DNA of 64,000 nucleotides from an uncultured Isosphaeraceae bacterium (GCA_964395845.1 CAYNCG010000015.1:356-64355), one strand, 5' to 3'; positions 4,943 to 55,052 are shown, numbered from the stretch's first letter. Notes: generated by a model not told the origin, from the letters alone. Translations and numbers: made by a program.

Positions 4943-6271
4943 TCACAACAATTCGACCAACACCTCATCCGCTAACAATTGTCCCGCGCGGGTGAACCGC
5001 ACGCGTCCCTGGACCCGCTCGAGCAGTCCGCGGCCGATCGCCCGGTCGATCGCCTCCCGCCGGGCCGGCCCTCGGCCGGAGCGTGTGGCCGCTTCGATCA
5101 CCGCGTCGGGCACGCCCTCGCGCAGGCGGAGTCCGACCAGCAGGATCTCACCGGCGCGGGTGTCCGGATCGACCTCCTCGCAGTCCACGATCGGCGCCAT
5201 CCGATCCTCGGTCTCCGCGAGCCAGCGGGTCAGGTTCGGGACATTCTTCCAGCGGATCCCGGCGACATGGCCGCTCGCGCTCGGCCCAAGCGCCCACCAG
5301 GACTCGTTTCGCCAGTAGAGGAGATTGTGGCGGCATTCCTGACCGGGCTGGGCGAAGTTCGAGATCTCGTACTGCTCGAAGCCAGCCCGTTCGGTGGCGG
5401 CGAGCGTCGCCTCGTACATCGCCGCCTCGAGATCCTCGTCGCAGGGCTCGAACTGACCGAGCTCAAGGCGCTTGGTCATCGCCGTGTTCGGCTCGTAGGT
5501 GAGCCCGTAGCAGGAGAGGTGATCGGGTCCGCAGGCCATCGCCTGGGCGAGATCGCTTTCCCATTCGGCGAGCGTCGATCCGGGCACGCCAAAGATGAGG
5601 TCGAGGTTCAGACGCCGCAACCCAGCCCTGCGGAGCCGTTCGACCGCCCGGGGCACGCTCGCCGGGTCGTGCCAGCGCTCCAGCGTCTTCAGGTGGTGCG
5701 GGTGAAAGCTCTGGGCTCCGAGACTCACCCGGTTCACCCCCGACTCGACGAGGATCGCGGCGACCTCGTCCGTGACGGTCTCAGGGTTCGCCTCGACGGT
5801 CCATTCGATCGACGGGGAAAAGGCGAACCGCTCGGCGACGCGGGCGAGCGCCCGCCGCAGGAGATCCGGTCGGAGGAGCGTGGGCGTCCCGCCGCCGATG
5901 AAGATCGTCTCGAGCACACCCCCCCGCTCCGGCTGACCGATGCCTGCGTTGGCGGCCGCGTCGACCTCCGCCTCAAGCCGACTCAGGTACGCCGGCTGCT
6001 GGTCGGCGCGGTCGACGAAGGAGTAGAAGTCGCAGTAGTGGCACTTGTGGAAGCAGAAGGGCACATGGAGATAGAGCCCGCGGATCCGTGGGAACGGCTG
6101 CCCGGGTGCGACGCGCTGGCGAAGGACGAACCCGGCGCTGGTCGCCGCATGTGGATCGCCCCCATCGGCTCTGCCTCCGAGGCTCACGGCGGAGCCGAGC
6201 TGCGGAAGCGGATGGGAGAACGCCGCCCCGTCGGCGGTCGGTGAAGTCGGATCGGGTCGCTCGGTGCCCAC
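4943..6271 (-). CDS. hemW: Radical SAM heme chaperone HemW / oxygen-independent coproporphyrinogen oxidase-like
   Basis: Has the CxxxCxxC radical-SAM cluster motif (HVPFCFHKCHYCDF) and HemN-like downstream domains. Confidence 0.85.
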   Translation of the reverse strand: MGTERPDPTSPTADGAAFSHPLPQLGSAVSLGGRADGGDPHAATSAGFVLRQRVAPGQPFPRIRGLYLHVPFCFHKCHYCDFYSFVDRADQQPAYLSRLEAEVDAAANAGIGQPERGGVLETIFIGGGTPTLLRPDLLRRALARVAERFAFSPSIEWTVEANPETVTDEVAAILVESGVNRVSLGAQSFHPHHLKTLERWHDPASVPRAVERLRRAGLRRLNLDLIFGVPGSTLAEWESDLAQAMACGPDHLSCYGLTYEPNTAMTKRLELGQFEPCDEDLEAAMYEATLAATERAGFEQYEISNFAQPGQECRHNLLYWRNESWWALGPSASGHVAGIRWKNVPNLTRWLAETEDRMAPIVDCEEVDPDTRAGEILLVGLRLREGVPDAVIEAATRSGRGPARREAIDRAIGRGLLERVQGRVRFTRAGQLLADEVLVELL

Positions 6272-6319
6272 TGCGAGGGAGAGCGTAGCCGCCCGCGCGC
6301 CGCTGTCCCGGCGCGCTCG

Positions 6320-6556
6320 TTACGCGGCGTCCTTGTCGCGTTCCTTGTCCCGGTCCGGCTTGGCCGGGGCGGCCCGCGGCGCGGAGGCCGGAATCTTGAT
6401 GTTCGTCCCGCAGTTTCGGCAGCGGACGAGCTTCCCGCGGGCGTTGATCGGCACGGCGAGAATGCGCTGGCAATCAAGCTTTGGGCACTTGATGCGAACG
6501 ACATCATCACGGCCGCCATGGCCGGAGTTCGGTACGGATGATCCAGTCGTACTCAC
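6320..6556 (-). CDS. Small zinc-ribbon protein
   Basis: 78 aa with a CPKLDC ... CRNCG pair and a Lys/Asp/Arg-rich tail. It occupies an otherwise empty intergenic slot. Confidence 0.5.
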   Translation of the reverse strand: MSTTGSSVPNSGHGGRDDVVRIKCPKLDCQRILAVPINARGKLVRCRNCGTNIKIPASAPRAAPAKPDRDKERDKDAA

Positions 6557-6825
6557 GGGTATGCCCTGTCATCGGCCTACCGCTCGGGTCGCTTGAGGCC
6601 GGGTCGGACGCAAGCCCGCAATCCTCCGAAGCCGCGTGCGACCGCCCCAGAGCGTGGCGGCGCTTCCCGTACAATCGCCGCTTGGCCTCCGGCTCGACCA
6701 CGCCCACCAACCGCCCCCCCGGGGACGGGTGAGCGGGCGAGGGGAGCCACGCGTCCGCTCTGGCAGGCCCTCCCACGGTCCCTTTCCGGACGCTTCGCCC
6801 CGTCGACGATCCGCGCCACCGCCAC

Positions 6826-8232
6826 ATGACTCCTCCCGCCGCCGTCTCTCCCATCCGTCCGACCGCGCACTCCGCTGGGGAGCGCCGAGCCCCGCTCAAC
6901 GCCGCCGTCGTGGGCCTCCAGTGGGGCGATGAGGGCAAGGGCAAGATCGTTGACCTGCTCACCGCCCGCTACGACACGATCGTCCGCTACAACGGCGGCG
7001 CGAACGCCGGTCACACCGTCGTCGTGGGGGACCAGAAGTACGCACTCCACCTGATTCCCTCGGGCATCCTCTACCCCGAGAAGCTCAATGTCATCGGGAA
7101 CGGGACGGTCATCGATCCGGAGAAGCTGCTCGACGAAATCGACAAGCTCCGCGCTCGCGGCATCGCCGTGAACCACAATCTGCGGGTGAGCGACCGGGCC
7201 CATGTCGTCATGCCCTATCACAAGGAGCAGGACGCGGCCCTCGAAGACTTCCTGGCCTCGAAGTCCGGGAAGGACAACGGCGGCCTCTCGATCGGCACCA
7301 CCCGCCGCGGCATCGGCCCGGCGTACGCCGACAAGATCTCCCGCTCGACGGCGATCCGGGTCGGCGACCTCCTCGAACCGACCATTCTCCGCCGCAAGCT
7401 CGATGTCGTCTGCGGCATCCGCACGGCGGAACTCGAAGCCCTTGGCGTCCGCACCCGGCCGCTCCGCGCCGACGAGCTCGCCGAGCACTTCAGCGCGGTC
7501 GGCGAGCGGATCCGACCGCTCGTCACCGACACCGTCTACCTCCTGCATGATCGGCTCGCCCAGGGCAAGTCGCTTCTCTTCGAGGGGGCGAACGCGTGCC
7601 TCCTCGACATCGATCACGGCACCTATCCCTATGTGACGAGTTCGAACTGCTCGACCTTGGGCATCCCCGCCGGAACGGGCGTCCCCGGCAGTCGGATCGA
7701 CATCGTCTACGGGATCATGAAGGCCTACTCGACGCGGGTCGGCGCCGGTCCCTTCCCCACCGAGCAGCTCAACCCGATCGGCGACCGGATTCGGGAACGC
7801 GGTCGCGAGTACGGCACGACCACCGGCCGCCCGCGGCGCTGCGGCTGGCTCGATCTCGTCGCGGTGCGGTACTCGGCGATGATCGGCGGCGCCACCGCCA
7901 TCGCCTGCACCCTCTTCGATGTCCTGACCGGCTTCGACGAACTCAAGCTCTGCGTCGGCTACCGTCTCCCCGACGGCTCGACGACCGATCGCTTCCGGCC
8001 CGACGCCGACCGCCTCGGCCTCGTCGAGCCGATCTATGAGACCTTGCCCGGTTGGCAGGAAGAAATCCGCGATTGTGCGTCGCGATCCGCACTTCCGGCG
8101 AACGCCCGCCGCTACCTCGAGCGTATCGAGGAGCTCGTCGGGGTTCCGATCGACATCGTGAGCGTGGGGCCCGAGCGCACCCAGACCATCGCCGACCCGG
8201 CACGGATTGGCGAACTCGTCGACGCGCCGTGA
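6826..8232 (+). CDS. purA: Adenylosuccinate synthetase
   Basis: GLQWGDEGKGKIVD P-loop and full-length PurA-like sequence. A short N-terminal extension makes the start uncertain. Confidence 0.9.
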   Translation: MTPPAAVSPIRPTAHSAGERRAPLNAAVVGLQWGDEGKGKIVDLLTARYDTIVRYNGGANAGHTVVVGDQKYALHLIPSGILYPEKLNVIGNGTVIDPEKLLDEIDKLRARGIAVNHNLRVSDRAHVVMPYHKEQDAALEDFLASKSGKDNGGLSIGTTRRGIGPAYADKISRSTAIRVGDLLEPTILRRKLDVVCGIRTAELEALGVRTRPLRADELAEHFSAVGERIRPLVTDTVYLLHDRLAQGKSLLFEGANACLLDIDHGTYPYVTSSNCSTLGIPAGTGVPGSRIDIVYGIMKAYSTRVGAGPFPTEQLNPIGDRIRERGREYGTTTGRPRRCGWLDLVAVRYSAMIGGATAIACTLFDVLTGFDELKLCVGYRLPDGSTTDRFRPDADRLGLVEPIYETLPGWQEEIRDCASRSALPANARRYLERIEELVGVPIDIVSVGPERTQTIADPARIGELVDAP

Positions 8233-8288
8233 CGATCGCGTCAGCGCCACCGACTCCGCTTCCACCTGACGCTCCTCTCCCACCGCTC

Positions 8289-9086
8289 ATGACCCCTCCC
8301 GCGTCCGCAGCCTCTCCCTCGATCGCTCCGGGCGTCGCCACGGCCGCGTCGATCGCCGAGCCACCGCTCGATCCGGCCCGCATGCCGCGGCACATCGCCA
8401 TCATCATGGACGGCAATGGTCGGTGGGCGCAGCGCCGCGATCTGCCCAGGGCCTTGGGTCATCGGGCCGGGGCGAAGGCGGTGCTCGAGATCGTCGAGGC
8501 GTGCAAGCAGCTTGGGGTCGGGGCTCTGACGCTCTACTCCTTCTCGAGCGAGAACTGGAAGCGCCCGGCGGATGAGGTCGCGGCGCTCATGGAACTCTGC
8601 CAGGAGTTCATCCGCGCCCAGTGCGCGACGATGATCACCAACAACATCCGATTCCGCCGGATCGGACGACGCGAAGGGATGCCCGCGGAGGTCCTCGCGG
8701 CCCTCGACGAGGCGGAGCGTGCGACCGCCCACTGCACCGCACTGACCCTCTGTCTCGCCCTCAACTACGGTTCGCGGACCGAACTCGTGGACGCGGCGAG
8801 AGCGATCGCAGCCCGGGTCGCCCGGGGCGAACTGACGGTGGACGCGATCGACGAATCGACGATCGAGCGGCACCTCTACACCGCCGGCCTCCCGGACCCG
8901 GATCTCCTCATCCGGACCGCGGGCGAACGACGGATCTCCAACTACCTCCTCTGGCAGATCAGTTACGCCGAACTCCATGTCGCCGAGTGCCTCTGGCCCG
9001 ACTTCGGGCCGGAGCAACTCCGAGAGGCGATCCGAGACTTCGCCAGCCGCGAACGGCGATTCGGGGATATCCGGGCGAAGGCCTGA
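8289..9086 (+). CDS. uppS: Undecaprenyl (isoprenyl) diphosphate synthase
   Basis: Carries HIAIIMDGNGRWA and RTAGERRISNYLLWQ motifs. The ORF-track start at 8052 overlaps purA, so the in-frame ATG at 8289 was chosen. Confidence 0.85.
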   Translation: MTPPASAASPSIAPGVATAASIAEPPLDPARMPRHIAIIMDGNGRWAQRRDLPRALGHRAGAKAVLEIVEACKQLGVGALTLYSFSSENWKRPADEVAALMELCQEFIRAQCATMITNNIRFRRIGRREGMPAEVLAALDEAERATAHCTALTLCLALNYGSRTELVDAARAIAARVARGELTVDAIDESTIERHLYTAGLPDPDLLIRTAGERRISNYLLWQISYAELHVAECLWPDFGPEQLREAIRDFASRERRFGDIRAKA

Positions 9087-20684: not shown

Positions 20685-20713
<29 letters not shown>

Positions 20714-21068
20714 TGGGCGTATGTGATGGGTCAGTGACGGCCTCGTGTCGTGCAAGCGACCGCCAGTGGCTCACGATGTCCGGCGAGACTCCGGCGGCTC
20801 CGCACTCAGGACACACCGAGATGCCGTCCTCCGGCTGACCGAGCTGGTGGAGACAGAGCGGGCAGAGGTGATACCCAGCCTCGGCAGCACGGCGATGAAG
20901 CCTGCGCATCCGTATGCGCGTCACGCTTGACGAGAGAGGCCGCAGGACGAGCACGAGTGCCAGCACGACCACGATCGACGCGGTTGGCCACACCAGAAAC
21001 GCAACGATCGATGCGATGACCAACGCTGCGAACCAGACGAGGAATCCGAAAAACAACGGCGAGGCCAT
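20685..21068 (-). CDS. Small membrane protein with C-terminal zinc-ribbon (CPLC ... CPECG)
   Basis: A hydrophobic N-terminus (two TM-like segments) followed by CPLCLHQL...CPECG. The start was set at an internal ATG (MASPLFF). The 3' end overlaps the convergent DHS gene and runs through a 24-bp tandem duplication. Confidence 0.45.
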
Positions 21069-21245
21069 CGTGCGCGGCTCGTTGTACACGACCGGGCGGC
21101 CGCGCTCCGCCGCCGAGTCGCGCCGCTCTGCGACCGCTTGCCGCGCGGGCGTGCGGCAGCCGCCGCACACCGCGGGGAGGACGAGTCGATTGTCCCACAC
21201 GCCGCAGCAGGGACGGGCTGCATTTCGTTTCGTTTCCACGGGCAG

Positions 21246-21602
21246 TCACCCAAAGAAGCAGCAGAGCTGGTCATCAGCAACAACCATCAGCGCCTCGAGC
21301 AGACCGCTGTGGAGCGGCGCCGGCTCGTAGAGATACCACTTGAGATCGCCGCGCATCCAGTACAGATTCCACTGGTCCTGCGTGCGAACATACCGGATCC
21401 TCGCGATTGGATGCTGGCGAAGGATCGTCTTTTCCTTCCAGTGCGGCCGGATCTCAAAGAGCTCGACTGTGTGACCGTCGGTCGTGAACCCGAAGTCGAG
21501 CTGACTGCGGATGTGCTCCGGCGGCCGACGCTTCGAGAAAAACCAATCCATCGCCGTCTGATTGACTGCCAGCTCGTGCTCGGTGAAGGCCATGGCGTTC
21601 AT
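21246..21602 (-). CDS. DUF3024 family protein
   Basis: 118 aa with the typical pattern RRPPEHIRSQLD...VELFEIRPHW...WNLYWMRGDLKWYLYEP...CFFG. It overlaps the upstream ORF by ATGA (translational coupling). Confidence 0.7.
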   Translation of the reverse strand: MNAMAFTEHELAVNQTAMDWFFSKRRPPEHIRSQLDFGFTTDGHTVELFEIRPHWKEKTILRQHPIARIRYVRTQDQWNLYWMRGDLKWYLYEPAPLHSGLLEALMVVADDQLCCFFG

Positions 21603-22036
21603 CGTATCGACGGCGATGGAAAGTGCCGCGCAGCGTTTGGCTGCGACACGAGAGAGAGGTCGAAGCCGACCGACATGTCGAACGTGACGGTGTGCCGCCC
21701 TCCGCTCGCGCCCGTCGCTGGCTCTACCTCAATGTCGAAGATGACGTTCTGGGTTCCGAATTCTCGGAGGTTCACATCTGCGACGTCGTTGAAGCGGAGC
21801 CCCACGAGTGGGCAGGAAAGTGCGGACAAGGGGTCGGAGGGCGTCCCCGGATAGGACCAAGGAATCTGACCTTCAAGCGTCAGTGTCACATGTCGTCCAG
21901 GCAGACACTCAGCGGTGACGGCAACGATCTCCGCGTCATGAAGGGAGGGCCACTCGCCGTAGCGAAGGCGAATCGCATCGGCATTGTCGGTGATCGCTTC
22001 CAATGGGTGTCGCATCGGATCTGCCTGAGTTGTCAT
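21599..22036 (-). CDS. Imm50-like immunity protein (polymorphic-toxin immunity family)
   Basis: The YGEWPSLHDAEIVAV motif and the later LRFNDVADVNLREFGTQNVIFDIEVE segment resemble Immunity protein 50. Confidence 0.55.
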   Translation of the reverse strand: MTTQADPMRHPLEAITDNADAIRLRYGEWPSLHDAEIVAVTAECLPGRHVTLTLEGQIPWSYPGTPSDPLSALSCPLVGLRFNDVADVNLREFGTQNVIFDIEVEPATGASGGRHTVTFDMSVGFDLSLVSQPNAARHFPSPSIR

Positions 22037-22184
22037 GAGCGAAAGAGCACCCCATGTCGTGACGAAGAGGAACGGGGGTGTGGGCTCGTCGCGATCGGGA
22101 TATGGGGTGGGGTATGGGTCTTTGCAGGCCGGTCACGACTTGCGGCGCAGGGGCCCCTGTGCGCGGAACGCCCGAGGACTCCTG

Positions 22185-22418
22185 CTACTGCGCGGCGAAA
22201 TGGTGGCCGGCATACTGCTCAAGGAATCCGCAGGACGAGCAGCGAAACACTCCGATCGGAATAGTGTGCGAGGTGGAAGACCTCGTACCAATCCAGAATG
22301 ACTTCTGGGGAACACCAGGAACCCAGTGCGAAATCAGTCGACCGCCGTGGGAGTGGTCAAGAACGAATCCCTGCTCCATCTGACCGTTGCACTTGGGGCA
22401 TGTGAGCTGCGTAGACAT
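22185..22418 (-). CDS. Small zinc-ribbon protein
   Basis: 77 aa with CPKCNG ... CSSCG pairs at both ends. Coding-like composition within the island. Confidence 0.6.
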   Translation of the reverse strand: MSTQLTCPKCNGQMEQGFVLDHSHGGRLISHWVPGVPQKSFWIGTRSSTSHTIPIGVFRCSSCGFLEQYAGHHFAAQ

Positions 22419-22460
22419 CGATGCGGATCCTCCTCGAACCGGCCTGGTGGTCGGAGATGC

Positions 22461-22563
22461 GTGTCACGGCTCGAACTGTGCCGCACGCACCCGCGGCCGA
22501 GGCCGTGGGCCGCTCGCCAATGGTAACGCCGAAGATGCGGTCGGCATGAACGATGCGTTCGAC
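22461..22563 (-). repeat. attC-like imperfect palindrome, family copy I
   Basis: About 103 bp, alignable to the copies at 25536, 28013, 28533 and 29622 (shared core TGCCGCACGCAC..GCGGCCGAGGCCGT.GGCC...GTCGGCATGA.CGATGCGTT). On the coding strand the ends are GTCGAAC ... GTGACAC. It lies between the stop of ORF 22579..22968 and the start of ORF 22185..22418. Confidence 0.55.
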
Positions 22564-22578
22564 CGGGCCGGTCGAACG

Positions 22579-22968
22579 CTACTGCGCGCTGGACTCGGGG
22601 ATCCGAAGGCGAGGCAACCAGAAGGCCCCAGCCAGGATGACCACGAATCCGAGCCACTCCCAGATCGTGGCAAGCCTTTCTGGGAGTGTGACATAAGCAA
22701 TTCCCTTGATGATGAGTCCGATGCCAAGAGCGATCGCAACGACGATGGTGACGAACACGGCATGGCGAACTGGAATGGCTGATGGCGACCGCTGCAGGAG
22801 CAGGCAGGTCAAGCCGACGATCAGGATTGCCATCGCAAGCGCAGTGCAGAACCACGGGACGGTGGAGTTGCCCAAGCGGCTCCAGAGCGAGAAATGGCCG
22901 ATCGATGTCGCCGCGAGGACGAGCACAAGCGAGATCAAAAAGAACCCGGCGATCTGGCGCGGCGTCAT
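22579..22968 (-). CDS. Small integral membrane protein (about 4 TM)
   Basis: 129 aa and strongly hydrophobic. The ATG at 22968 is preceded by AAGGAG. Confidence 0.6.
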   Translation of the reverse strand: MTPRQIAGFFLISLVLVLAATSIGHFSLWSRLGNSTVPWFCTALAMAILIVGLTCLLLQRSPSAIPVRHAVFVTIVVAIALGIGLIIKGIAYVTLPERLATIWEWLGFVVILAGAFWLPRLRIPESSAQ

Positions 22969-23208
22969 CGATATCTCCTTGGCGGCAGAACCTGTCACGA
23001 TAGAAGCCCCCGCCTCGATAAGTGTAACGACGGCGTTGGCTGGTCGCAATCACGGTTCGGGCGCTGGCAGGTTGGTCACCGCCTACTGCATATGTGTTGT
23101 TGCGGGCTTACCGGCGGCTTCGGCAAATGGTTCCTACAGGCCGAACGCCGCCCGCGGCCTACTCGCTTCTGCACGAAGGGTCCGGGGCTTCCGGTCTGTA
23201 GGAATCCC

Positions 23209-23700
23209 TCAGTATCGCGCACGCAGGACCGGGGGTCCTCCTCGTGTGCGGCGTCGGATCTTCCAGCCCGGCGGCGTGCTCCTCCGCGCATCGGGCGGTA
23301 CACCCATCAATGATGCCGCCAGGCGTGTCGGCATCACCGCCGGTTGAGGCACGGGGGCAGGTGCTGGATCCGCCGAGCTTCTCTCCGGACGGCTGCGTTC
23401 CTTCATCGTCATGACCTCAGCGAGGATGCGAATGAGTACATCATCGCCTCGATCGGCCGCGCAGTGTTCAAATGTCGTTGTGCTTGATCGGGTGGCGGTA
23501 AGCCACGCGTTGACGCAGTCGCCCACTTCGTGCACGCAGCCCACGATGCGATTGTCGACGACTCCGACGCGCGGGGAGCTTTCCTGCGCCACGCAGTGGC
23601 GGAGGTCGGAGTGAGCGATTCGACGGTTCCGAAGGATCCGATCGCACGGGCGCTGGAATGAGATCGGCGACGGGCGATTCGATCGGAAGACGGAGAACAA
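23209..23700 (-). CDS. Hypothetical protein (weakly supported)
   Basis: This is the only sizeable same-strand ORF between the CPBP gene and the TM gene. No recognisable domain. Its composition is partly non-coding-like. Confidence 0.25.
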   Translation of the reverse strand: MFSVFRSNRPSPISFQRPCDRILRNRRIAHSDLRHCVAQESSPRVGVVDNRIVGCVHEVGDCVNAWLTATRSSTTTFEHCAADRGDDVLIRILAEVMTMKERSRPERSSADPAPAPVPQPAVMPTRLAASLMGVPPDARRSTPPGWKIRRRTRGGPPVLRARY

Positions 23701-23715
23701 GGCTCTACCGACCGT

Positions 23716-24627
23716 TCATGATGGCTCGGTCGAGCAGGCCGCCGGCACGACGAAGGCCCCGCGTCGCCGTGCCGCGCGCAGCAGCAACACAACCGCGACC
23801 GTGGTCGATGCCATCACCAGCCACGAACTCTCTGGACCGAACATCCCGCCAGTCAGCCAGTCGGGCCCGGCGAGGCGGCTCTCGAGCGGCGCCACGCTGC
23901 GCCACTCCTCGATACCGGAAAGCGGCAGGCCGCTCAGCAGAATGGTGAAGTTCCATGCCGCGTGATTGGCGGCCACCACCCACAGGTTCCGCGCCAGGAC
24001 GAAGACCGCGGCCCAGAGCATCCCCACCAGCGTCACTGACATCAGCATGGTCACCACATCGCTGATCCCACCCTCCTCGACATTCTCCAAGTGCGCGACG
24101 GCGAACACCACCGCCTGTATCACCAACGCCCAGATCGTTCCCCACGCCCGTTCCACCAGCCGGAACAGCAGGCAGCGGTAGACCAGTTCCTCCAAAAGCG
24201 ATGCGATGCCGATCAGGGCCGCTACGCCGAAGAGCGCCGGCGAGAAGCCTCGAAACAGCACCCGTTCATAGGCACCGAGAACGAAGAGCGCAGCCATCGG
24301 GAGCGCCACCAAGACAGCACCGCTTGCGCCGCCGAGCATCAGGGGAATCGGCCGCAGATGCAGCTCGGTCGCTTCGCGTCTTTCGTACCAGTGCACGAAT
24401 GCCCAGTAGCCCCCCACCGCCGTCAGAAGGATGCCAACGCGCCGCACGACGCTGAGAGCGTCCGGCCCGGGATGGAACACCGCTTCGATCAGCGGTAGCA
24501 GACCTTGGCGAAGGATCAGAATCGAGCCAAGAACCGCTACGCCACCCAGCAGCAGCGATCCGAGCATCCGCCCGGCGACACGCAGTTGCCGTCGCGCGGT
24601 GCTTCCAGTTGAGATCGGTGCGGTCAT
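23716..24627 (-). CDS. CPBP family intramembrane glutamic endopeptidase (CAAX protease-like)
   Basis: Multi-TM protein with EELVYRCLLF (EExxxR) and FAVAHL (FxxxH) motifs. Confidence 0.8.
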   Translation of the reverse strand: MTAPISTGSTARRQLRVAGRMLGSLLLGGVAVLGSILILRQGLLPLIEAVFHPGPDALSVVRRVGILLTAVGGYWAFVHWYERREATELHLRPIPLMLGGASGAVLVALPMAALFVLGAYERVLFRGFSPALFGVAALIGIASLLEELVYRCLLFRLVERAWGTIWALVIQAVVFAVAHLENVEEGGISDVVTMLMSVTLVGMLWAAVFVLARNLWVVAANHAAWNFTILLSGLPLSGIEEWRSVAPLESRLAGPDWLTGGMFGPESSWLVMASTTVAVVLLLRAARRRGAFVVPAACSTEPS

Positions 24628-24979
24628 GGGGGTGGAGCAAAAGGTCAGGCTGCACCGTCAAGCGCACCGGTGGTGTGATTGGGACGGGAGGCCAGCACCT
24701 TGCGGAGAAACGGCGCATGTGCCCGGATGTCGACAACTTTGTTGCCCACGAGCTCCATGGCAAGGCTCCGCTCAAGATCCGAGTCCGCCTCGCGACACTG
24801 AGCGCCGCCGATCGGCTGGTCTCGGCAACAGCACGGCCTAGAGGTACACCCGCAGGGCTCGACTGCGCGTGACTCCGCTGGCGCTCTCGTCCTCAGTGCT
24901 GGAGACTAGCCGGCGGCGGCGAGGGCGGGATAGCCCATCAGGCTTCGCCGCAGCCCGAATGGAGTGTCTGAGCGGCCTG

Positions 24980-25143
24980 CTAGTGTGGTGTTTCAGAAAT
25001 TCGCGAACAGTGCGGCGCGGCATGTTTGCGTCTGGCAAGCAGCCGCGACGAGGCGTATGGAGTCATACGGCGAGGAGCGGCGACGCCGCCAGACGCGAAC
25101 AGGGCCGCCGCAATGGAAGCGAATTTCTGAAACACCACACTAG
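24980..25143. repeat. 164-bp hairpin element with perfect 25-bp terminal inverted repeats
   Basis: CTAGTGTGGTGTTTCAGAAATTCGC at 24980-25004 is the exact reverse complement of 25119-25143. The interior is itself an imperfect palindrome centred near 25060 (CGTATGGAGTCATACG). The right arm contains the stop codon of ORF 25140..25529. Confidence 0.85.
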
Positions 25144-25529
25144 GTCGCCCAAACAGCGAACATCACAGCCGCCACGGCAAACGCGAGAGCGACGACAGTC
25201 CGCCGGCGCAGGTCGGCGGCCATGGCAGTTGCTGCGAACACGACCCCAATGAGTGCCGCGGCTGGAAGGCCGTAGCGGAGAGCACCCGCCGAGAGGGAGC
25301 TCGGAGGGGGAGGCCGGAGCCATGCGACAGTCGAGACGGCCGCAGTCACGGCGGAGTAGGCGAGTGAGCCGAGCCAGTAGGTGACCGCGAGTCGTCGAAG
25401 CGTGAGTCGTGAAGCGGTCTGCCGGCGAGTTGAACCGCACTCAGCGCACGGCGAGTTCGACGGTTGGGTCCGGCGATCGAAACCGCAGTCAGGACAGACC
25501 TTCGAAAGGAGTTCAGACGGCTCCTGCAT
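25140..25529 (-). CDS. Zinc-ribbon membrane protein
   Basis: 129 aa with CPDCG ... CAECG followed by three hydrophobic segments. Confidence 0.55.
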   Translation of the reverse strand: MQEPSELLSKVCPDCGFDRRTQPSNSPCAECGSTRRQTASRLTLRRLAVTYWLGSLAYSAVTAAVSTVAWLRPPPPSSLSAGALRYGLPAAALIGVVFAATAMAADLRRRTVVALAFAVAAVMFAVWAT

Positions 25530-25535
25530 GAATCT

Positions 25536-25637
25536 GCCTGACGACCTGAGCTATGCCGCACACATACGGCCGAGGATAAAAACCCCATACTTGAGTGTAC
25601 TCCGCGCGTGCGTCTCGGCATGAGCGATTCGTTCGTC
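25536..25637 (-). repeat. attC-like imperfect palindrome, family copy A
   Basis: 102 bp member of the ~103 bp family. On the coding strand the ends are GACGAAC ... GTCAGGC. It ends 6 nt before the next ATG. Confidence 0.6.
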
Positions 25638-25765
25638 CGCGAAGTGTCGAGGCACAGTTACTCGAACATAGGTGGTCGCCCTCGTTCGAGCGAAAGGCCG
25701 AAGATGTCCACCAGACGAGCGGATCAGGATTGTCGCCGTTCTCTGTGGAGATGCGATGGGAACGA

Positions 25766-26023
25766 TTACCTGCCAGCCGGACTCTGGGGCGCAGAGTCCG
25801 GGCTCCGTCCAGTGAGTCGTTCCCGCGCGTGCTGTAACGCCGCAACGGCGTCATCCAGCGCGAACTCCCACGGCGTTCCGTCCTCGCGCGGGTAGAGCTC
25901 CAATGTGAGGCTACCCGCCTCTTGGTGGATCTCAGCCCACTGCTCCTGATCACACGAGATCATCGCCACGAGTCGCTCGCGGTCTGGCGGACTGGCAAGG
26001 ATCACGGTCATCTTCGTGGGCAT
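25766..26023 (-). CDS. Hypothetical small protein
   Basis: 85 aa, acidic, with coding-like composition. It is bracketed by attC-like elements. Confidence 0.5.
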   Translation of the reverse strand: MPTKMTVILASPPDRERLVAMISCDQEQWAEIHQEAGSLTLELYPREDGTPWEFALDDAVAALQHARERLTGRSPDSAPQSPAGR

Positions 26024-26034
26024 GTGATCGAACA

Positions 26035-26094
26035 GCCGAACGACCTCGCGCTGAGCAGCGGCCGAAGGCCGCCTATTCCAGCTCGCAGTTCGGT
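26035..26094 (-). repeat. attC-like imperfect palindrome (short, 60 bp)
   Basis: On the coding strand it reads ACCGAAC-N46-GTTCGGC with a central GCGGCCTTCGGCCGC hairpin. It lies between the stop of ORF 26114..26806 and the start of ORF 25766..26023. Confidence 0.45.
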
Positions 26095-26113
26095 AGTCTA
26101 CCGGTACAACCGC

Positions 26114-26806
26114 TCATGAGGCAGTCCCATTTCGCCATCCGGCGCCTGCGAGCGAAGGAGCCGGTAGGCCAGCGGCTTGCGGATACCAAGTGACGTTACT
26201 CCACGACGAGGGATCCGCCCGAAGGGCCTCAAGGCAGCGCTCGGCCAACCCCTCAGGTGAGAGGGTCTCCGATTGGAGGTGAACGAGCACCTGGTACGGC
26301 CCCGGGGAAAGCACCATCGCAATGGTCATGCTGCCCGGGCCGATGCGACCCGAGGACCAAAGGTACTCGAACCCTCGACTGGCGAGGGCTGCGCGATCGA
26401 TGCCGGACGAAATCAGGCGAGCGGCTGTTCGATCGGGAGTTTCCCATGAAAAGTCACCGAGCGCTCGGCCGATCTCGCGTTCGTATTGCTCCGCCAAAAA
26501 GCGGACTGTCGTCATTCCAGTTGGAGCGCGCCAGATAACGACATCGTGGTTCCGCTCGATCACGACCTCAACGCTTCCGCATCCCGTCACGCCGCAACCG
26601 CAACGTCCGATGGTCGCCGTGTGGGGACCATCTCGTGGCAGAAGGGGACAAGATGAAGTCAGCAAATCCTCGGGGTCCAGGCCCATCATCGTGTTGTCGA
26701 AACGCGAGATGATGTCGTCATCGCCATCGAGGAGACGCACCTCGTGATCGTTCGTCTCTGGGGAGGGCACAACGGCGATTCGGAGCGTCGACACAGGGTC
26801 TGCCAT
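26114..26806 (-). CDS. Hypothetical protein
   Basis: 230 aa with coding-like composition and a Cys cluster (GRCGCGVTGCG). No domain recognised. Confidence 0.6.
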   Translation of the reverse strand: MADPVSTLRIAVVPSPETNDHEVRLLDGDDDIISRFDNTMMGLDPEDLLTSSCPLLPRDGPHTATIGRCGCGVTGCGSVEVVIERNHDVVIWRAPTGMTTVRFLAEQYEREIGRALGDFSWETPDRTAARLISSGIDRAALASRGFEYLWSSGRIGPGSMTIAMVLSPGPYQVLVHLQSETLSPEGLAERCLEALRADPSSWSNVTWYPQAAGLPAPSLAGAGWRNGTAS

Positions 26807-26828
26807 CAGTAAGCGCCTCTCTGGATCT

Positions 26829-26957
26829 GCCTATCGTTCGAGCGAAGCTGCCGGCGAAGGCTGGCGGTGTACGCCTGGTTCGCGATGATCGACCAAGCGC
26901 CGCGGACCAGTCTTCCAGCGCCTGCCGGAGCAGGTCAGCTTGATCGAGGAGTTCGGC
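26829..26957 (-). repeat. attC-like imperfect palindrome (129 bp, divergent)
   Basis: On the coding strand it reads GCCGAAC ... GATAGGC. It has internal inverted arms (CTGCTCCGGCAGGCGCTGG / CCAGCCTTCGCCGGCAG). The 3' end AGGCAGAT matches copy A. Confidence 0.35.
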
Positions 26958-26965
26958 CGCATTGC

Positions 26966-27448
26966 TCAACCGTCTCGTTTGGATGCAAAGGCGTGGAGCG
27001 CCGCCAAAGCCCCGACGGCGTGCTTGCCCCAGTGCATGCGATGCGTCAACGACCATCTCCAGATGGCTTCGTCGATGCGACCTTCGTCCGCAAGCAAGCA
27101 GCCAGTCTTGATGTCCTTGTATGTATCCAGCAGGTCGTCCCCAATGTCCCCCATGACCGGCTCTTCAGCGAGACTGGGTGATGGATCGAACACACTCCTG
27201 TAGAACCAACCGTTGAACGCAGCGAGGTTGCGCGTTGCCAACTGAAGCTGTAGTGCCGGAACCTCTGCTATCTCGTCTCCATCGTCGCCGTCGATCGCCG
27301 GTAGCTCCATCACCGCTGCATGCAGCTTGGATAGCCACACTGCGGCCTGTCTCTCCTTGTCCTGACCAAGTGAATCGCCCTCGCACCATGCGCAGAAGCC
27401 CTGTGCGAGTTTGGTGAAGGCGTGGATAGCCATTGCCGGTTGGTTCAT
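26966..27448 (-). CDS. DUF5063-like protein
   Basis: 160 aa. The pattern YRSVFDP...EPVMGDIGDDLLDTYKDIKTG...WRWS...HWGKHAVGALAALH resembles DUF5063. The start was set at the internal ATG (MNQPAMA). Confidence 0.6.
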   Translation of the reverse strand: MNQPAMAIHAFTKLAQGFCAWCEGDSLGQDKERQAAVWLSKLHAAVMELPAIDGDDGDEIAEVPALQLQLATRNLAAFNGWFYRSVFDPSPSLAEEPVMGDIGDDLLDTYKDIKTGCLLADEGRIDEAIWRWSLTHRMHWGKHAVGALAALHAFASKRDG

Positions 27449-27451
27449 TCG

Positions 27452-27553
27452 GCCAAACGCGGAGTGGACCGGGCGACGACGGCGTAGCGCCCGGCCCGCG
27501 CGGCGGATGACAGACAGCGAGCGCTGCGCGGGCCAGGTGCCATGCCGTTGGCG
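27452..27553 (-). repeat. attC-like imperfect palindrome (102 bp, divergent)
   Basis: On the coding strand it reads CGCCAAC ... GTTTGGC, with internal GGCCCGCGC / GCGCGGGCC arms. It ends 3 nt before the ATG of the DUF5063-like ORF. Confidence 0.4.
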
Positions 27554-27581
27554 CTCGGGTTGAACGACAGGTGAGGCGGCA

Positions 27582-27941
27582 CTACTCGGCGTCCCACTGG
27601 CGAAACACAACGCAGACAGAGGTGGAGTCCAGTAGGGCGAACTCCTTCGCCCCCCAAGGCTTCATTTGGACCGTGCTGGAGTTCGGATGAAGCAGATCCG
27701 GGGCTCTGCTTCGGACTTCCTCGTACGCACCGTCGATGTCATCTGTCTCGATTGCGAGTTCGGGCCGATCCAGTGCCGCCAACCCGGCGTTCTGCATGAG
27801 GTAGACCTTGACGTTGTCGCGCCCAAGGACCGAGATCGTGGGGTCCTGATGAAGCAAGGTAAACCCGAGGCCGCGAACGAAGAGATCCAGTCCGATCTGG
27901 ATGTCCGCGTAGAAGACCTTTGGAATCAGCGACAGGTACAT
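27582..27941 (-). CDS. VOC family (glyoxalase/bleomycin-resistance-like) protein
   Basis: 119 aa whose size and pattern (FYADIQIGLDLFV..LGF...VYL...IETDDIDGAYEEV...WGAKEFALLD) are typical of small VOC proteins. The start was set at the internal ATG downstream of the repeat. Confidence 0.7.
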   Translation of the reverse strand: MYLSLIPKVFYADIQIGLDLFVRGLGFTLLHQDPTISVLGRDNVKVYLMQNAGLAALDRPELAIETDDIDGAYEEVRSRAPDLLHPNSSTVQMKPWGAKEFALLDSTSVCVVFRQWDAE

Positions 27942-28012
27942 GTGAGCCGTCCTTCCCGAGCCGTCCGTGAACTGCGTCGATTGATTGGCCGTGGCTCGCG
28001 CGGGTGGGTGCC

Positions 28013-28115
28013 GCCTCACGACCGTGAGCGATGCCGCACGCTCATGCGGCCGAGTCCGTAGGCCTCGCACAAGAGTCTAACGCACGCGTGTGTCGGCACA
28101 AGTGATTCGTTCGGC
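28013..28115 (-). repeat. attC-like imperfect palindrome, family copy B
   Basis: 103 bp family member. On the coding strand the ends are GCCGAAC ... GTGAGGC. Confidence 0.6.
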
Positions 28116-28131
28116 GGGCTCGCACCTTGGC

Positions 28132-28431
28132 TCAATCCGAGAGGAGGGCGTCGAGCAAGATGCGGCCGACTGTGGGTAGCAGGATTCCGGCGGCGACGAT
28201 GAACCACCAGATACCGCCCGAACCTATTCGAACGAGCAGCCAGAACCAGCCAAAGCAGTAGGCGAACGAGATCGCCGTTCCGACCAGGACTGCCAAAAGG
28301 GGGTTGCCGGCGAAGAGTGTGAGCAGCCCCGTGACTCCGGTGAAGATGCCGGCGCAGACTGCGGGGCGCTCGGTCTCGACCAGCAGCTTGAGGCATCCGA
28401 CGAGGAGCGCGAGTTGAATTGCGATGAGCAT
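28132..28431 (-). CDS. Small integral membrane protein (3 TM)
   Basis: 99 aa and hydrophobic throughout. The start was set at the ATG downstream of repeat copy C. Confidence 0.55.
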   Translation of the reverse strand: MLIAIQLALLVGCLKLLVETERPAVCAGIFTGVTGLLTLFAGNPLLAVLVGTAISFAYCFGWFWLLVRIGSGGIWWFIVAAGILLPTVGRILLDALLSD

Positions 28432-28532
28432 AGGAGTGTCGGAGCTAGGTCGACGGGTCTTCCGTGCGTGAGCGATGTGACTGTCCGCATCGTCGCCGAA
28501 GCAGCGGTGGGCTCGGCGCTCGCCACGGCTCC

Positions 28533-28636
28533 GCCAAACGACTTGAGCTATGCCGCACGCACGTGCGGCAGAGGCTAAAGGCCTCGCGAAGAGTGTACAG
28601 CCGCACGTGCGTGTCGGCATGAGCGATGCGCTAGGC
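28533..28636 (-). repeat. attC-like imperfect palindrome, family copy C
   Basis: 104 bp and nearly identical to copy D. On the coding strand the ends are GCCTAGC ... GTTTGGC. The stop codon of the RES gene lies inside the first heptamer. Confidence 0.65.
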
Positions 28637-29605
28637 CGCACCGCAGCGGTAGTACAGAGGATTCTCAGCGAACCGTTCCAGGCTGAGCTCGGGATTTAGC
28701 ACAACCAAGTTGAAGTTGGCTCCAGTTCGCCGGGTGGATGGATAGCGAATGGCGTCGACGGAGCAGGCTCGGGCGCAGTCCGCTACGAATCGGGAGACAA
28801 CGTAGTGTGGACGCTGCCATCCGTTGCTCTCTTGCCTCGCACTAACGAGCGAAGAGTACACGAGGCAGTTGAGCAAGTCGACGTCGCGGACGGACGCCTG
28901 ATGATCCCTGTACGGATTGATGAGATCAAGAACACGGAGCTCTGCGCGGAGTTCAAACCCAACAACTAAGCTTGGCGCGAGGCGAAGTTCTGCATGACAT
29001 GTACTGACGTCGCTTGCAAGGTACAGGACTGGCTGGCCCGCGTGGTTGTAGCGGCCCTCTTGGATCAGATGCGGAGGCGGAAAGTCGAAGGACCGAAGTT
29101 CCTCTTCAATCGACCCATGTGCCAAGCTGCGTCCACGAAAGAGACGCTGCTCGAGCCGCTTGATGGGCAAGCTGGCGGCGAGTCTGCGCACTGCCGAAAG
29201 CACGTTCCTGCAGAAGTCGTGTTCAAGTAGCAGGAAGGGCGTCGTGTTTGCCAGCATTGAGACTTCGCGAAGGGTACGCTCTATGCTCCGCGGCACTCTG
29301 AATGGGAATTCGTACGGCCAGATATTCCCTGCAAGAGGACTGTAACAACGAGGGCAGTAGAGCTGACGGACTAGGAGATCGAAGTCTTCCTTCGAGTACT
29401 CGTCACGCAGGAAGCTGCCTTCATAAAACGTATCCAGATCAATGCTCGTTTTCTGGAAGTGACAGTCATCCGCGCTGTCGGCGTATGGCCATACCGCAAG
29501 AAAGTCGTCGTGACAGGCATCGCAGCATGCGATGTCCGCGGAGAACCACTTTTCAAGATCTCGATAGAACCACTCTTCGAAGGTTCCAACGTCGTAGTTA
29601 GTCAT
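28631..29605 (-). CDS. RES domain-containing protein (toxin-like) with Cys-rich N-terminal domain
   Basis: C-terminal GRYNHAGQPVLYLASD...HAE...DAIRYPSTRR motifs give the R-E-S signature. The N-terminal domain has CCDAC and CPRC pairs. Start at the ATG (MTNYDVG) downstream of repeat copy D. Confidence 0.8.
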   Translation of the reverse strand: MTNYDVGTFEEWFYRDLEKWFSADIACCDACHDDFLAVWPYADSADDCHFQKTSIDLDTFYEGSFLRDEYSKEDFDLLVRQLYCPRCYSPLAGNIWPYEFPFRVPRSIERTLREVSMLANTTPFLLLEHDFCRNVLSAVRRLAASLPIKRLEQRLFRGRSLAHGSIEEELRSFDFPPPHLIQEGRYNHAGQPVLYLASDVSTCHAELRLAPSLVVGFELRAELRVLDLINPYRDHQASVRDVDLLNCLVYSSLVSARQESNGWQRPHYVVSRFVADCARACSVDAIRYPSTRRTGANFNLVVLNPELSLERFAENPLYYRCGAA

Positions 29606-29621
29606 GGCGGATGATTGTGCG

Positions 29622-29725
29622 GCCTGACGACTTGAGCTATGCCGCACGCACGTGCGGCCGAGGCCGTAGGCCTCGCGACCATGGTACAGCCGCACGGGCG
29701 TGTCGGCATGAGCGATGCGTTAGGG
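29622..29725 (-). repeat. attC-like imperfect palindrome, family copy D
   Basis: 104 bp. On the coding strand the ends are CCCTAAC ... GTCAGGC. It begins 4 nt after the stop of ORF 29730..30740 and ends 16 nt before the RES gene ATG. Confidence 0.65.
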
Positions 29726-29729
29726 CCCC

Positions 29730-30740
29730 TCAGATGCCAATCAGGCGTGTGCACACGATTGCTGCAAGAATGTTGAGCAGAATGTTCCACGCCGCGTGCA
29801 GTACGAACTTGCGGCCGAGCTGGCGATTGGTGTCCTCCAGCCTTGCAAGACGTTTCTTGTCGCCGCTCGTGAACTCGAAGACGACGCGCGCGCCCTCCAA
29901 GGCTGCCAGCGACTTGAAGACCAATCCAGCACACACCTGCGAGCCCTTCTGGGCCAACCTGAGCAGCGCGACGCCCAAGAGCACTGCAGCTCCGACTAGG
30001 TGCGCGGGGGCCCCCTCGGGGTACCAGTAGTTGGATGCCCACAGAAGTGCCGAGATCAGCAGGAGCGTGCACGAAACGAAGAGCCAGTAGTCGAGGATCG
30101 TCGCGACAAGCTGCCGCTTTGACTTGAACCAGAACCAAGGGTCCGCAATCAGCTTCGGCGATTTGCGGCCGTCGTACCACTCTGAAACGACGTTAATGAG
30201 CTCCTTGCTGAGGGTGGCGTTGATGAAGTCGACGCGACAGAACGCTGGCGCTGAGAAGAGGTCCACCTGATCAAACTCGTCAGGGTTGCCCGAAGCGATC
30301 ATCTGCAGGACACGGCCCGGCTTGAGATCCCGGGATACGCGGAAGATCAGCGTGTGGCGCTGCGGGGCTTTGTAACCGGGAATATCGACCATGAAGTCCC
30401 ACTTGACAACGACTTCCTCGATGCACTCCTGTTGCTGCCAGTGGTGGCTCTCGAACTCGAGCCAAGTTCCGAACTCGTTGAAGTGCGAGCTCTCGAAGGA
30501 AACTTTCACGGTGGTGGCGGATGCATCAATCTGGTGCGTATCGAGCTTCCGCTCAACACATTGATTCAGCTCGAGAAAGTCATGAGGGGAGAGATGTGCC
30601 GCCTCGGTATAGACCTTTATCCGCGAGTCAGGACGGCCTGCGTAGAGGTAGAAAAGAGAGCGAAGGCGGTCCTTCGGGATAGCGGCAACGAGCTCAGTAC
30701 CGGCGTCACCTGGGTGTTCAAGATTATTTGCATTCGGCAT
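29730..30740 (-). CDS. Hypothetical membrane protein (soluble N-terminal ~190 aa domain plus C-terminal multi-TM region)
   Basis: 336 aa and markedly AT-richer than the flanks. The C-terminus has several hydrophobic helices. No domain recognised. Confidence 0.7.
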   Translation of the reverse strand: MPNANNLEHPGDAGTELVAAIPKDRLRSLFYLYAGRPDSRIKVYTEAAHLSPHDFLELNQCVERKLDTHQIDASATTVKVSFESSHFNEFGTWLEFESHHWQQQECIEEVVVKWDFMVDIPGYKAPQRHTLIFRVSRDLKPGRVLQMIASGNPDEFDQVDLFSAPAFCRVDFINATLSKELINVVSEWYDGRKSPKLIADPWFWFKSKRQLVATILDYWLFVSCTLLLISALLWASNYWYPEGAPAHLVGAAVLLGVALLRLAQKGSQVCAGLVFKSLAALEGARVVFEFTSGDKKRLARLEDTNRQLGRKFVLHAAWNILLNILAAIVCTRLIGI

Positions 30741-30830
30741 CTGCTTCTCGATTGACTGGTGGCCCTAACTTGCAATGGTCGAGAGAACGCCCCTCGTCGT
30801 CATTGAGAGTATCGACGGCGTAGGCTGATC

Positions 30831-31107
30831 GCAATCGCGTTATGGGTTTTTGCGGGCTGGCTGTCGCACGCGGGATATGGGTTTTCGCGGGATGCTCTCC
30901 GCCCATGGCATCGGAGTTCGTGCAGCCTCATCGCCGCTCACGGCACATGCGGGCTTGCAGGATGGCCGCCGCTTGCGGCATACGGGTTTTTGCAGGCTGA
31001 CCGCGGCTTGCGGCATATGGCGGTTTGCATGCTGGACGCCCTGTGCGGCATATGGGCTTTTGCGGGCCGACCGCGAGTTGCGGCATATGGGTTTTTGCAC
31101 GCTGGGG
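30831..31107. repeat. Non-coding tandem array, 35-bp unit x8
   Basis: Head-to-tail units start at 30831, 30866, 30901, 30933, 30968, 31003, 31038 and 31073. The core is GCGGCATATGGGTTTTTGC(R)GGCTG(R)CC. The period is not a multiple of 3 and no spacers are present. Confidence 0.85.
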
Positions 31108-31176
31108 GCGGACGCTCTGGGATCCGAGGGTGCGCGAGCAGCGGTTGCGTGTGAGGCTGCTGGTGGTCCCCGCAAG

Positions 31177-31292
31177 CTGCCGCTTGTCGTCCGCGCGGGC
31201 TGCTGCTGGTCGGCCGCGTGGGCTGCCCGCTTGTCGTCCGCCCATACTGCCGCTTTTGGTCCGCGCGTGCTCCGGCTGGTCGTCTGCGTATG
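31177..31292. repeat. Non-coding tandem array, 23-bp unit x5 (degenerate copies on both sides)
   Basis: Units CTGCCGCTTGTCGTCCGCGCGGG / CTGCTGCTGGTCGGCCGCGTGGG / CTGCCCGCTTGTCGTCCGCCCATA / CTGCCGCTTTTGGTCCGCGCGTG / CTCCGGCTGGTCGTCTGCGTATG. Confidence 0.6.
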
Positions 31293-31346
31293 CGGTACGG
31301 GGTCGTGCTTGCGTTCCGCTTCGGGTTGCGCAGCCTGGCTTCGGTG

Positions 31347-54964: not shown

Positions 54965-55052
54965 CGGAGAGAGTGAGATTCGAACTCACGGTGAGGATAA
55001 ACCCCACACTAGTTTTCGAGACTAGCCCTTTCAACCGCTCAGGCATCTCTCC
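54965..55052 (-). tRNA. tRNA-Ser (anticodon CGA)
   Basis: The reverse complement folds as a class II tRNA. Acceptor stem GGAGAGA/TCTCTCC. Anticodon stem CTAGT/ACTAG with loop CTCGAAA. Long variable arm. T-arm GTGAG-TTCGAAT-CTCAC. No CCA is encoded. Confidence 0.85.

Follow-up and report, generated by a model that had tools for sequence, protein, structure and literature searches.

A 64,000-nucleotide stretch of DNA from an uncultured bacterium catalogued as Isosphaeraceae (GCA_964395845.1 CAYNCG010000015.1:356-64355; hereafter the window, with positions counted from its first letter) carries between 20.7 and 30.8 kb an island of short genes that is very probably a chromosomal integron cassette array without its integrase, i.e., a cluster of attC sites that has no integron-integrase (CALIN), and a partly decayed one. 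An original prediction made from the sequence had described this region as a CALIN or as an array separated from its intI gene. This remains the right placement, because a covariance model of unrelated attC sites finds its best matches here, the attC family of the island lies beside integrases in related genomes, and no IntI is found in the window.

The island is a lower-GC region of short open reading frames (ORFs) lying between a membrane glycosyltransferase (GT)-like gene on one side and a deoxyhypusine synthase (DHS)-like gene on the other. From 20685 to 30740, all ORFs supported by codon-position GC analysis are on the minus strand, with a GC content at third codon positions (GC3) of 0.73-0.79 compared to 0.85-0.91 in the flanks, and a GC content per kb that falls to 0.58-0.65 compared to 0.68-0.71, consistent with the earlier description of exclusively minus-strand, AT-richer genes. 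These ORFs are separated by eight imperfect palindromes of 60-129 bp, inside the known attC range of about 57-141 bp, which begin 0-128 nt after a minus-strand stop codon and follow one another at 0.5-1.1 kb from start to start, plus one interval of 3.1 kb. From the high-coordinate end, and all read on the minus strand, they are A (29622-29725, R'' CCCTAAC, R' GTCAGGC), B (28533-28636, GCCTAGC, GTTTGGC), C (28013-28115, GCCGAAC, GTGAGGC), D (27452-27553, ending GTTTGGC), E (26829-26957, 129 bp, GCCGAAC, GATAGGC), F (26035-26094, 60 bp, ACCGAAC, GTTCGGC), G (25536-25637, GACGAAC, GTCAGGC) and H (22461-22563, GTCGAAC, GTGACAC); coordinates and heptamers read back exactly as first proposed. R'' retains AAC in seven of the eight elements (AGC in B), with 5-7 of 7 matches to RYYYAAC, while R' has GTT in B, D and F (3/8) and GTC, GTG or GAT in the rest.

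The attC identity of these elements is supported by a covariance model (R1) built only from 11 plasmid-borne class 1 integron attC sites, in which only the R-box and L-box pairs are specified. The sites come from ten class 1 integrons and were cut out after annotated cassette genes, with the IntI1 reference confirmed against the plasmids at 100% identity; the estX and arr-3 sites were left out of the alignment. When the whole window is scanned on both strands with all filters off (128 kb of sequence), the four best matches are A (22.1 bits, E 0.0027), B (21.3 bits, E 0.0044), G (matched at 25540-25637, 14.3 bits, E 0.38) and E (11.8 bits, E 1.8), all full length, all on the minus and hence coding strand, and three of the four with exactly the boundaries given by the original prediction, whose attC assignment is thereby corroborated. 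R1 aligns the window ATCGCTCATGCCGAC...GCGGCATAGCTCAAG to the aadA-type TTCGTTCAAGCCGAC...GCGGCTTAACTCAAG, including two unpaired bases of the L'' arm placed six pairs apart. Rfam gives no attC match in the window, and on the elements only chance sub-threshold matches (Chlorobi-1, 22 bits against a threshold of 50).

Five of the elements (A, B, C, G and H) belong to one family, with a mean column identity of 81% (alignment A3). A covariance model of these five copies (R2) finds exactly these five in 64 kb; all lie on the minus strand within the island, and the remaining 53 kb has no copy. A repeat finder also recovers the five members. The five-member family suggested earlier therefore stands, but the copies starting at 28533 and 29622, then called nearly identical, are 88% identical. 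The three further elements had been credited with the same architecture. E is a different sequence type and the fourth-best R1 match; F, a short type forming a hairpin with a larger unpaired, asymmetric loop on the R''-L'' arm, has only a weak R2 match (26032-26100, 10.4 bits, E 1.8); and D is a long imperfect hairpin, an atypical attC-like element (see below). Alignment together with folding of the bottom strands, the check proposed for R and L boxes with extrahelical bases, shows an L''/L' box with two extrahelical bases in all five family copies and a loop on the same arm in F, and is unconvincing for D. Stability is uneven: A and B (z -6.0 and -6.5) fold far better than shuffled sequences, whereas C (+0.9), G (+1.0) and H (-0.3) fold no better than shuffles. 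C and H are decayed and were recognized through A3 and R2, and G has a decayed inner stem while retaining its L box with extra bases; D has a z of -3.2, and the values of E and F are unremarkable.

The same family is found well beyond the window. A metagenome scan with a 23-nt family pattern yields 36 loci, in about 20 of which R2 detects the family, for at least 33 distinct copies, typically in groups of 2-4 on a single strand, about 0.5-1.7 kb apart from start to start. The consensus outside the window reads GCCTAAC...GTTAGGC, with AAC in 26 and GTT in 32 of 33 members, and across these 33 members pairing extends to 93% of the cells of the proposed structure (95% in helix 2). The two unpaired positions of A3 and A6 are columns 22 and 29, which lie six pairs apart as in aadA1, with column 29 invariant and column 22 present in at least 90% of members. 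These results show that most attC sites of the window belong to a homogeneous, clade-specific family of about 113 bp. They also bear on the suggestion, drawn from the non-GTT heptamers, of a divergent recombination site or a different mechanism: as the family consensus outside the window is textbook, with GTT in 32 of 33 members, the non-GTT heptamers represent local drift, and the suggestion is not supported. One outside copy (L040, 2364-2475) has R'' GCCTGAC and R' GTCAGGC, a compensated double change in which R-box pairing is kept and AAC/GTT is abandoned.

In three loci (L008, from a related genome, and the metagenome loci L046 and L054) the family lies downstream of a Phycisphaerales integron integrase. 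That of L008 is 51% identical to IntI1 (tblastn) and scores 443 bits against TIGR02249 'integron integrase' (cutoff 265). Downstream of it and on the same strand follow, in order, a Gp49/HigB-like and helix-turn-helix (HTH) gene pair, a junction GTTAGCC, one ORF, an attC site GGCTAAC...GTTACGC, and a second attC site starting with GCGTAAC, which scores 45 bits against the window-family model despite its truncation by the end of the locus. The gene pair (1696-2321), a Gp49/HigB-like toxin and an HTH_37 antitoxin-like gene, occupies the space between intI and the attI junction. In L046 and L054, an IntI homologue that is 72-74% identical to that of L008 lies upstream of the family on the same strand, followed by four family attC sites in L046 and one in L054. 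Both homologues (L046 6291-7067; L054 2793-3563) lack, in frame, a stretch matching approximately residues 222-277 of the L008 integrase, which we take to be the region of the IntI-specific insertion, and are probably inactive. The link between the family and IntI recombination is one of association, given by the position of the family downstream of IntI in these three loci.

These distributions also bear on the possibility that the elements are ordinary intergenic palindromes, such as repetitive extragenic palindromic (REP)/BIME-like sequences, miniature inverted-repeat transposable elements (MITEs) or terminators, which resemble attC by chance and have no relation to an integron. The elements are indeed GC-rich intergenic hairpins just past stop codons, no integrase lies nearby, and three of the five family copies as well as E and F have unremarkable fold z-scores. 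However, a model of unrelated class 1 attC sites recovers them, their extra bases and R boxes obey attC rules, no run of T follows the hairpins, and the family occurs beside integron integrases in three loci and in cassette-sized same-strand arrays in metagenomes. Nor is the repeat scattered in many copies and in either orientation, as REP sequences or MITEs would be and as the original prediction had named as evidence against an integron: within the 64 kb, its five copies occur in the island only and always on the coding strand. A chance resemblance is therefore hardly credible.

A further signature is provided by the cassette boundaries. At the upstream end of the array, the sequence GTTAGGG (30763-30769, minus strand) forms a candidate entry junction with a crossover at G|TT, so that the first cassette starts at 30768. 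This junction is the exact reverse complement of the R'' box CCCTAAC of the first attC site (29725-29719); both ends of cassette 1 deviate in the same way from the family consensus GCCTAAC/GTTAGGC, as would be expected if a circular cassette had been opened in R' and then inserted. The same boundary rule is observed in both L008 cassettes, with six of six positions in each pair (GTTAGCC/GGCTAAC and GTTACGC/GCGTAAC). Counted by hand, the complementarity of R' and R'' across boundaries amounts to 27/36 over six window cassettes compared to 23/36 within a site, a count not used beyond cassette 1. The R' box of D pairs, one G-T pair included, with the R'' box GCCGAAC of the attC site of the next cassette.

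No integrase accompanies the array. Searches with both IntI1 and the Phycisphaerales IntI of L008 (tblastn) reveal no IntI in the 64-kb window, i.e., over 33 kb upstream and 20 kb downstream of the array, with nothing better than E 0.4, and low-stringency tblastn recovers only noise and no intI remnant, including at 9.1-9.6 kb, the counterpart by synteny of the L008 intI site, and at 30.8-31.35 kb. The arrangement that defines a complete integron, an intI adjacent to attI and the array, is absent from the window.

By analogy with characterized integrons, each unit of the array would pair an ORF that lacks a promoter with an attC site downstream of it. Folded into a hairpin, the bottom strand of attC would present an R box, an L box and two extrahelical bases. 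This bottom strand would be cut in the R' box by an IntI tyrosine recombinase, at the position that corresponds to G|TT on the top strand, and circular cassettes would have been inserted successively at the G|TTAGGG junction (30769-30763). In relatives, the family would be served by an integrase located upstream of the cassettes in the same orientation; at the window locus, this integrase may have been lost or may be encoded elsewhere, or the array may have grown at a secondary site.

The state of the sites suggests that recombination has weakened. In the five family copies the R' triplets are GTC, GTT, GTG, GTC and GTG, so that one in five keeps the GTT present in 32 of 33 members elsewhere. 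With drifted R boxes and several decayed hairpins, most cassettes are probably poorly mobile or immobile. An alternative is that the array is still active, being served in trans by an intI located elsewhere in the genome after a rearrangement split the two, with non-GTT R' boxes tolerated and cassettes still excised and reinserted. In its favour, AAC is kept in R'' at seven of eight sites, complementarity between the entry junction and the first R'' remains perfect, the folds of A and B are very good, the copy in L040 shows a compensated change (GCCTGAC/GTCAGGC), and homologues of the genes flanking intI in L008 are present at 4.9-9.1 kb of the window, indicating rearrangement between the genomes. 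Moreover, IntI1 tolerates a lone change in the third position of the triplet, with recombination at wild-type level, provided that only one partner site has it; a GTC site paired with an unmutated partner is likewise as active as wild type (PMC2811028). When both sites are mutated, however, recombination drops 17- to 150-fold (PMC2811028), and R boxes that are near-invariant in the other arrays of the family have drifted in all five window copies, three of which lack hairpin stability. Neither IntI nor a remnant of it is found in 64 kb, and other ERR34949xx runs show the same neighbours where these are covered (GT-cassette 1; the VOC ORF, DUF5063 and the next ORF). Continued activity is thus possible but rather unlikely.

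Several observations weigh against the interpretation of the island as a decayed, integrase-less cassette array. With R1, an E-value below 0.01 is reached by two elements only, and C, D, F and H are not detected within E 10. D gives no full-length match to either R1 or R2 and has no convincing R'' or L box. No clear attC site is found in the 22.97-25.5 kb interval, nor among the genes below 22.46 kb. The 150 nt that lie upstream of the entry junction show no homology to either attI region, that of L008 or that of L046 (z 1.1-1.6), whereas these two are homologous to each other (z 12.6); the junction may represent a secondary site or come from a different integron lineage. Finally, since IntI1 tolerates mutations in one partner (PMC2811028), the drift of the R boxes suggests, and does not prove, reduced mobility.

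The possibility that foreign cassette contigs were joined to a Phycisphaerales chromosome by mis-assembly or binning also deserves consideration, as the island has a lower GC, repeated attC sites break short-read assemblies, and Logan contigs do end at attC sites. Yet assemblies of other runs join, with identical sequence, the UbiA-GT pair to cassette 1 (L001 and L002) and the VOC ORF to DUF5063 and the next ORF (L072 and L073), and both flanks of the island are syntenic with L003, so that such a chimera is very improbable. GT-cassette 1, VOC-DUF5063-next ORF and the RES cassette are reproduced identically by independent short-read assemblies from four ERR34949xx runs; the joins covered by these assemblies are genuine, and those samples have the order of the window.

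As for the host, the flanking membrane glycosyltransferase-like protein assigns the window to the Phycisphaerales (Planctomycetota), while an exact-protein look-up of the DHS-like flank gene yields no match. Between the same flanks (UbiA-GT ... DHS-histidine kinase), the closest relative, L003, has 6.3 kb of ordinary genes unrelated to the island (a dockerin protein, a beta-propeller protein and a pyridoxal phosphate (PLP) enzyme) and no attC site. Upstream of UbiA in L003 (5787-5856, minus strand) there is a lone full-length attC-like match to the class 1-derived model (18 bits, E 0.046), with no integrase and no second site near it; this match is probably spurious. Homologues (65-78% identity) of the three intI-flanking genes of L008 (4005-7916) lie at 4946-9083 of the window; in L008 these three genes are also adjacent to the UbiA-GT pair, a pair that the window carries 23 kb away, beside the array. 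Gene order around this region has been rearranged between the two genomes. A single simple inversion leading from the L008 arrangement to that of the window was considered and ruled out, as the gene order does not fit. The sole above-threshold Rfam match in the window is a tRNA gene at 54965-55052 (minus strand), unrelated to the island.

The genes carried by the array, all on the minus strand, are functionally diverse. Cassette 1 (29730-30740) encodes a GC3-supported protein of 336 aa with no Pfam match or other family assignment, which follows the same GT gene in L001 and in L002, two assemblies independent of each other. It is followed by a RES-domain protein of 324 aa (cassette 2, 28631-29605; Pfam RES, E 7e-19), the TAG stop codon of which lies inside the R'' box GCCTAGC of attC site B (28636-28630), the single case of a stop codon inside the first heptamer, as noted in the original prediction. 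Next come a 99-aa hydrophobic peptide without Pfam match (cassette 3, 28132-28431), a 119-aa bleomycin-binding-protein-like ORF of the VOC fold (cassette 4, 27582-27941), a DUF5063 protein of 160 aa (cassette 5, 26966-27448; E 3e-16), a 230-aa protein without Pfam match (cassette 6, 26114-26806), a GC3-supported protein of 85 aa (cassette 7, 25766-26023), and a 129-aa protein with CxxC pairs and a hydrophobic tail, for which zinc-ribbon matches are sub-threshold only (cassette 8, 25140-25529). Further along are a CPBP/Rce1-like membrane protease of 303 aa (23716-24627; PF02517, E 4e-15), which is followed by no clear attC site, and a 129-aa membrane protein with a weak DUF2339 match (22579-22968). 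Cassette-like genes extend past the start initially given for the array, down to 20685, with, in distal position, a DUF6487 zinc-ribbon gene (22185-22418), an Imm50 gene (21599-22036), a DUF3024 gene (21246-21602) and a gene for a zinc-ribbon protein (20685-21239), all recognized by Pfam; this distal stretch as a whole has a lower GC3.

The earlier identification of RES, DUF5063-like, CPBP and zinc-ribbon proteins is borne out, with RES, DUF5063, Rce1/CPBP and DUF6487 (a zinc ribbon) each above the Pfam threshold. That of a VOC/glyoxalase protein is supported in part: the Pfam Glyoxalase match is sub-threshold (E 0.12), but the ORF aligns over its full length to bleomycin/zorbamycin-binding proteins of the PDB (phmmer, E 3e-4). 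The distance from an element to the next start codon, put at 3-45 nt, is larger in two cases, the VOC-like ORF (71 nt) and the ORF with three transmembrane segments (101 nt), measured to the only in-frame starts. No homologues of the window cassette proteins are found at E<1e-5 in the metagenome arrays or related loci.

Other structures occur in the part of the island that is poor in attC sites. At the stop codon of the 129-aa zinc-ribbon-like ORF, where an attC site would be expected, begins a unique hairpin of 164 nt (24980-25143), the 38-nt arms of which show 89% complementarity; its dG is -62.8 kcal/mol. R''/R' motifs are absent from it, no further copy occurs in any sequence compared, and the hairpin may represent a MITE, a terminator or else an aberrant site. 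In addition, two short attC-like remnants can be discerned by eye 3' of the CPBP gene on the minus strand, at about 23554-23624 (GTCGAATCGCTCACTCCGAC...GTCGGAGTCGTCGAC) and about 23290-23350 (CCTCAACCGGCGGTGATGCCGACACGCC-TGGCGGCATCA); both are missed by R1 and R2.

The array also contains a repeated module. The spacer between the GT gene and cassette 1 (30741-31346, minus strand) is 606 nt long, as it is in assembly L001, and is mostly filled by 7.5 tandem copies of a 35-nt repeat (30841-31104; minus-strand consensus approximately CCGCAAGCGGCGGTCAGCCTGCAAAAACCCATATG), a motif found nowhere else in the window, and, beside them, by about five copies of a 23-nt unit (31176-31288). A module of about 130 nt, composed of remnants of the 35-nt unit and a conserved 60-nt core that includes CGCGATTGCGAyCAGCCnACGCCGTCGwTACnCT, is present in three diverged minus-strand copies (30741-30905, 22969-23135 and 22037-22184), each directly upstream of an island gene, and one copy ends exactly at the G|TT cassette junction. 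Relative to shuffled sequences, 22969-23135 aligns to 30741-30905 with a z of 13, and 22037-22184 aligns with a z of 8.5. Among 70 related loci, pattern and BLAST searches retrieve the module and the 35-nt unit only from contigs of the same genome.

The module contains TTGCGA and TACTCT separated by 17 nt, which by eye is promoter-like, and could be a promoter; a consensus promoter and terminator scan finds nothing above shuffles in the island and does not flag the module. Expression of the island genes from this thrice-repeated promoter-like module is a speculative proposal. A distinctly unlikely reading is that the module represents an undescribed integron entry platform, i.e., a portable attI/promoter unit through which an integrase acting in trans would insert cassettes, and have them expressed, at several points of an array that lacks an integrase; the 35-nt repeats would in that case be putative accessory binding sites for the integrase or a regulator.

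The interpretation as a decayed CALIN leaves the picture of how integrons work unchanged. Integrons in Planctomycetes, CALINs, homogeneous chromosomal attC families and co-oriented ('inverted') integrases have already been described (PMC4889954; PMC2426708; PMC3575428). What the array adds is a well-documented integrase-less example from the Phycisphaerales, a poorly studied planctomycete order, together with a family consensus (GCCTAAC...GTTAGGC) that can be used to fish the cassettes of this lineage from metagenomes. In addition, the conserved copies beside an integrase and the drifted copies here provide a small natural example of attC decay after recombination stops.

Among known systems, the definition of a CALIN as two or more attC sites separated by less than 4 kb, with no intI nearby (Cury et al. 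2016, PMC4889954) describes the window, with its eight sites and no intI in 64 kb. As in that survey, the sites are less than 4 kb apart on one strand, the cassettes carry unknown functions and not resistance genes, and no recognizable intI pseudogene is present in the window, as in 95% of the surveyed CALINs. The window differs in having eight attC-like sites compared to a survey average of five, visibly drifted R boxes, and the thrice-repeated module with 35-nt tandem repeats, which is not described there. With the 'inverted integrase group' (Boucher et al. 2007), to the extent that it is presented in the citing article (PMC3575428), L008, L046 and L054 share an intI upstream of the cassettes on the same strand. 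L008 differs from what that article relates of the group by its Gp49/HigB-like and HTH_37 pair between intI and attI, while the window, having no intI, could be counted as a member only through the common attC family.

The organization of the sites themselves is that of class 1 attC (aadA1, aadB, cmlA1, blaVIM-2 and others): a 7-nt R'', a 5-nt spacer, a 12-nt L'' with two extra bases six pairs apart, L', a spacer and R', with a likeness that extends to sequence (window ATCGCTCATGCCGAC + GCGGCATAGCTCAAG, aadA1 TTCGTTCAAGCCGAC + GCGGCTTAACTCAAG). In contrast with class 1 sites, those of the window have a longer central stem, for a site length of about 104 bp compared to 60-110 bp, a 3' spacer one nt longer, and R' boxes that depart from GTT. 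Sedentary chromosomal integrons are characterized by homogeneous, clade-specific attC sites, as in the Vibrio cholerae repeat (VCR) arrays of Vibrio and in Xanthomonas, the latter often with an inactivated intI. The window is set apart from these by its host, a member of the Phycisphaerales in the Planctomycetota, and by an integrase that is wholly absent from the locus, and not present or pseudogenized next to attI. It nevertheless resembles them in possessing one dominant clade-wide attC family, toxin/immunity-type and unknown small proteins, a position between conserved chromosomal genes, and a content that differs from that of its relatives.

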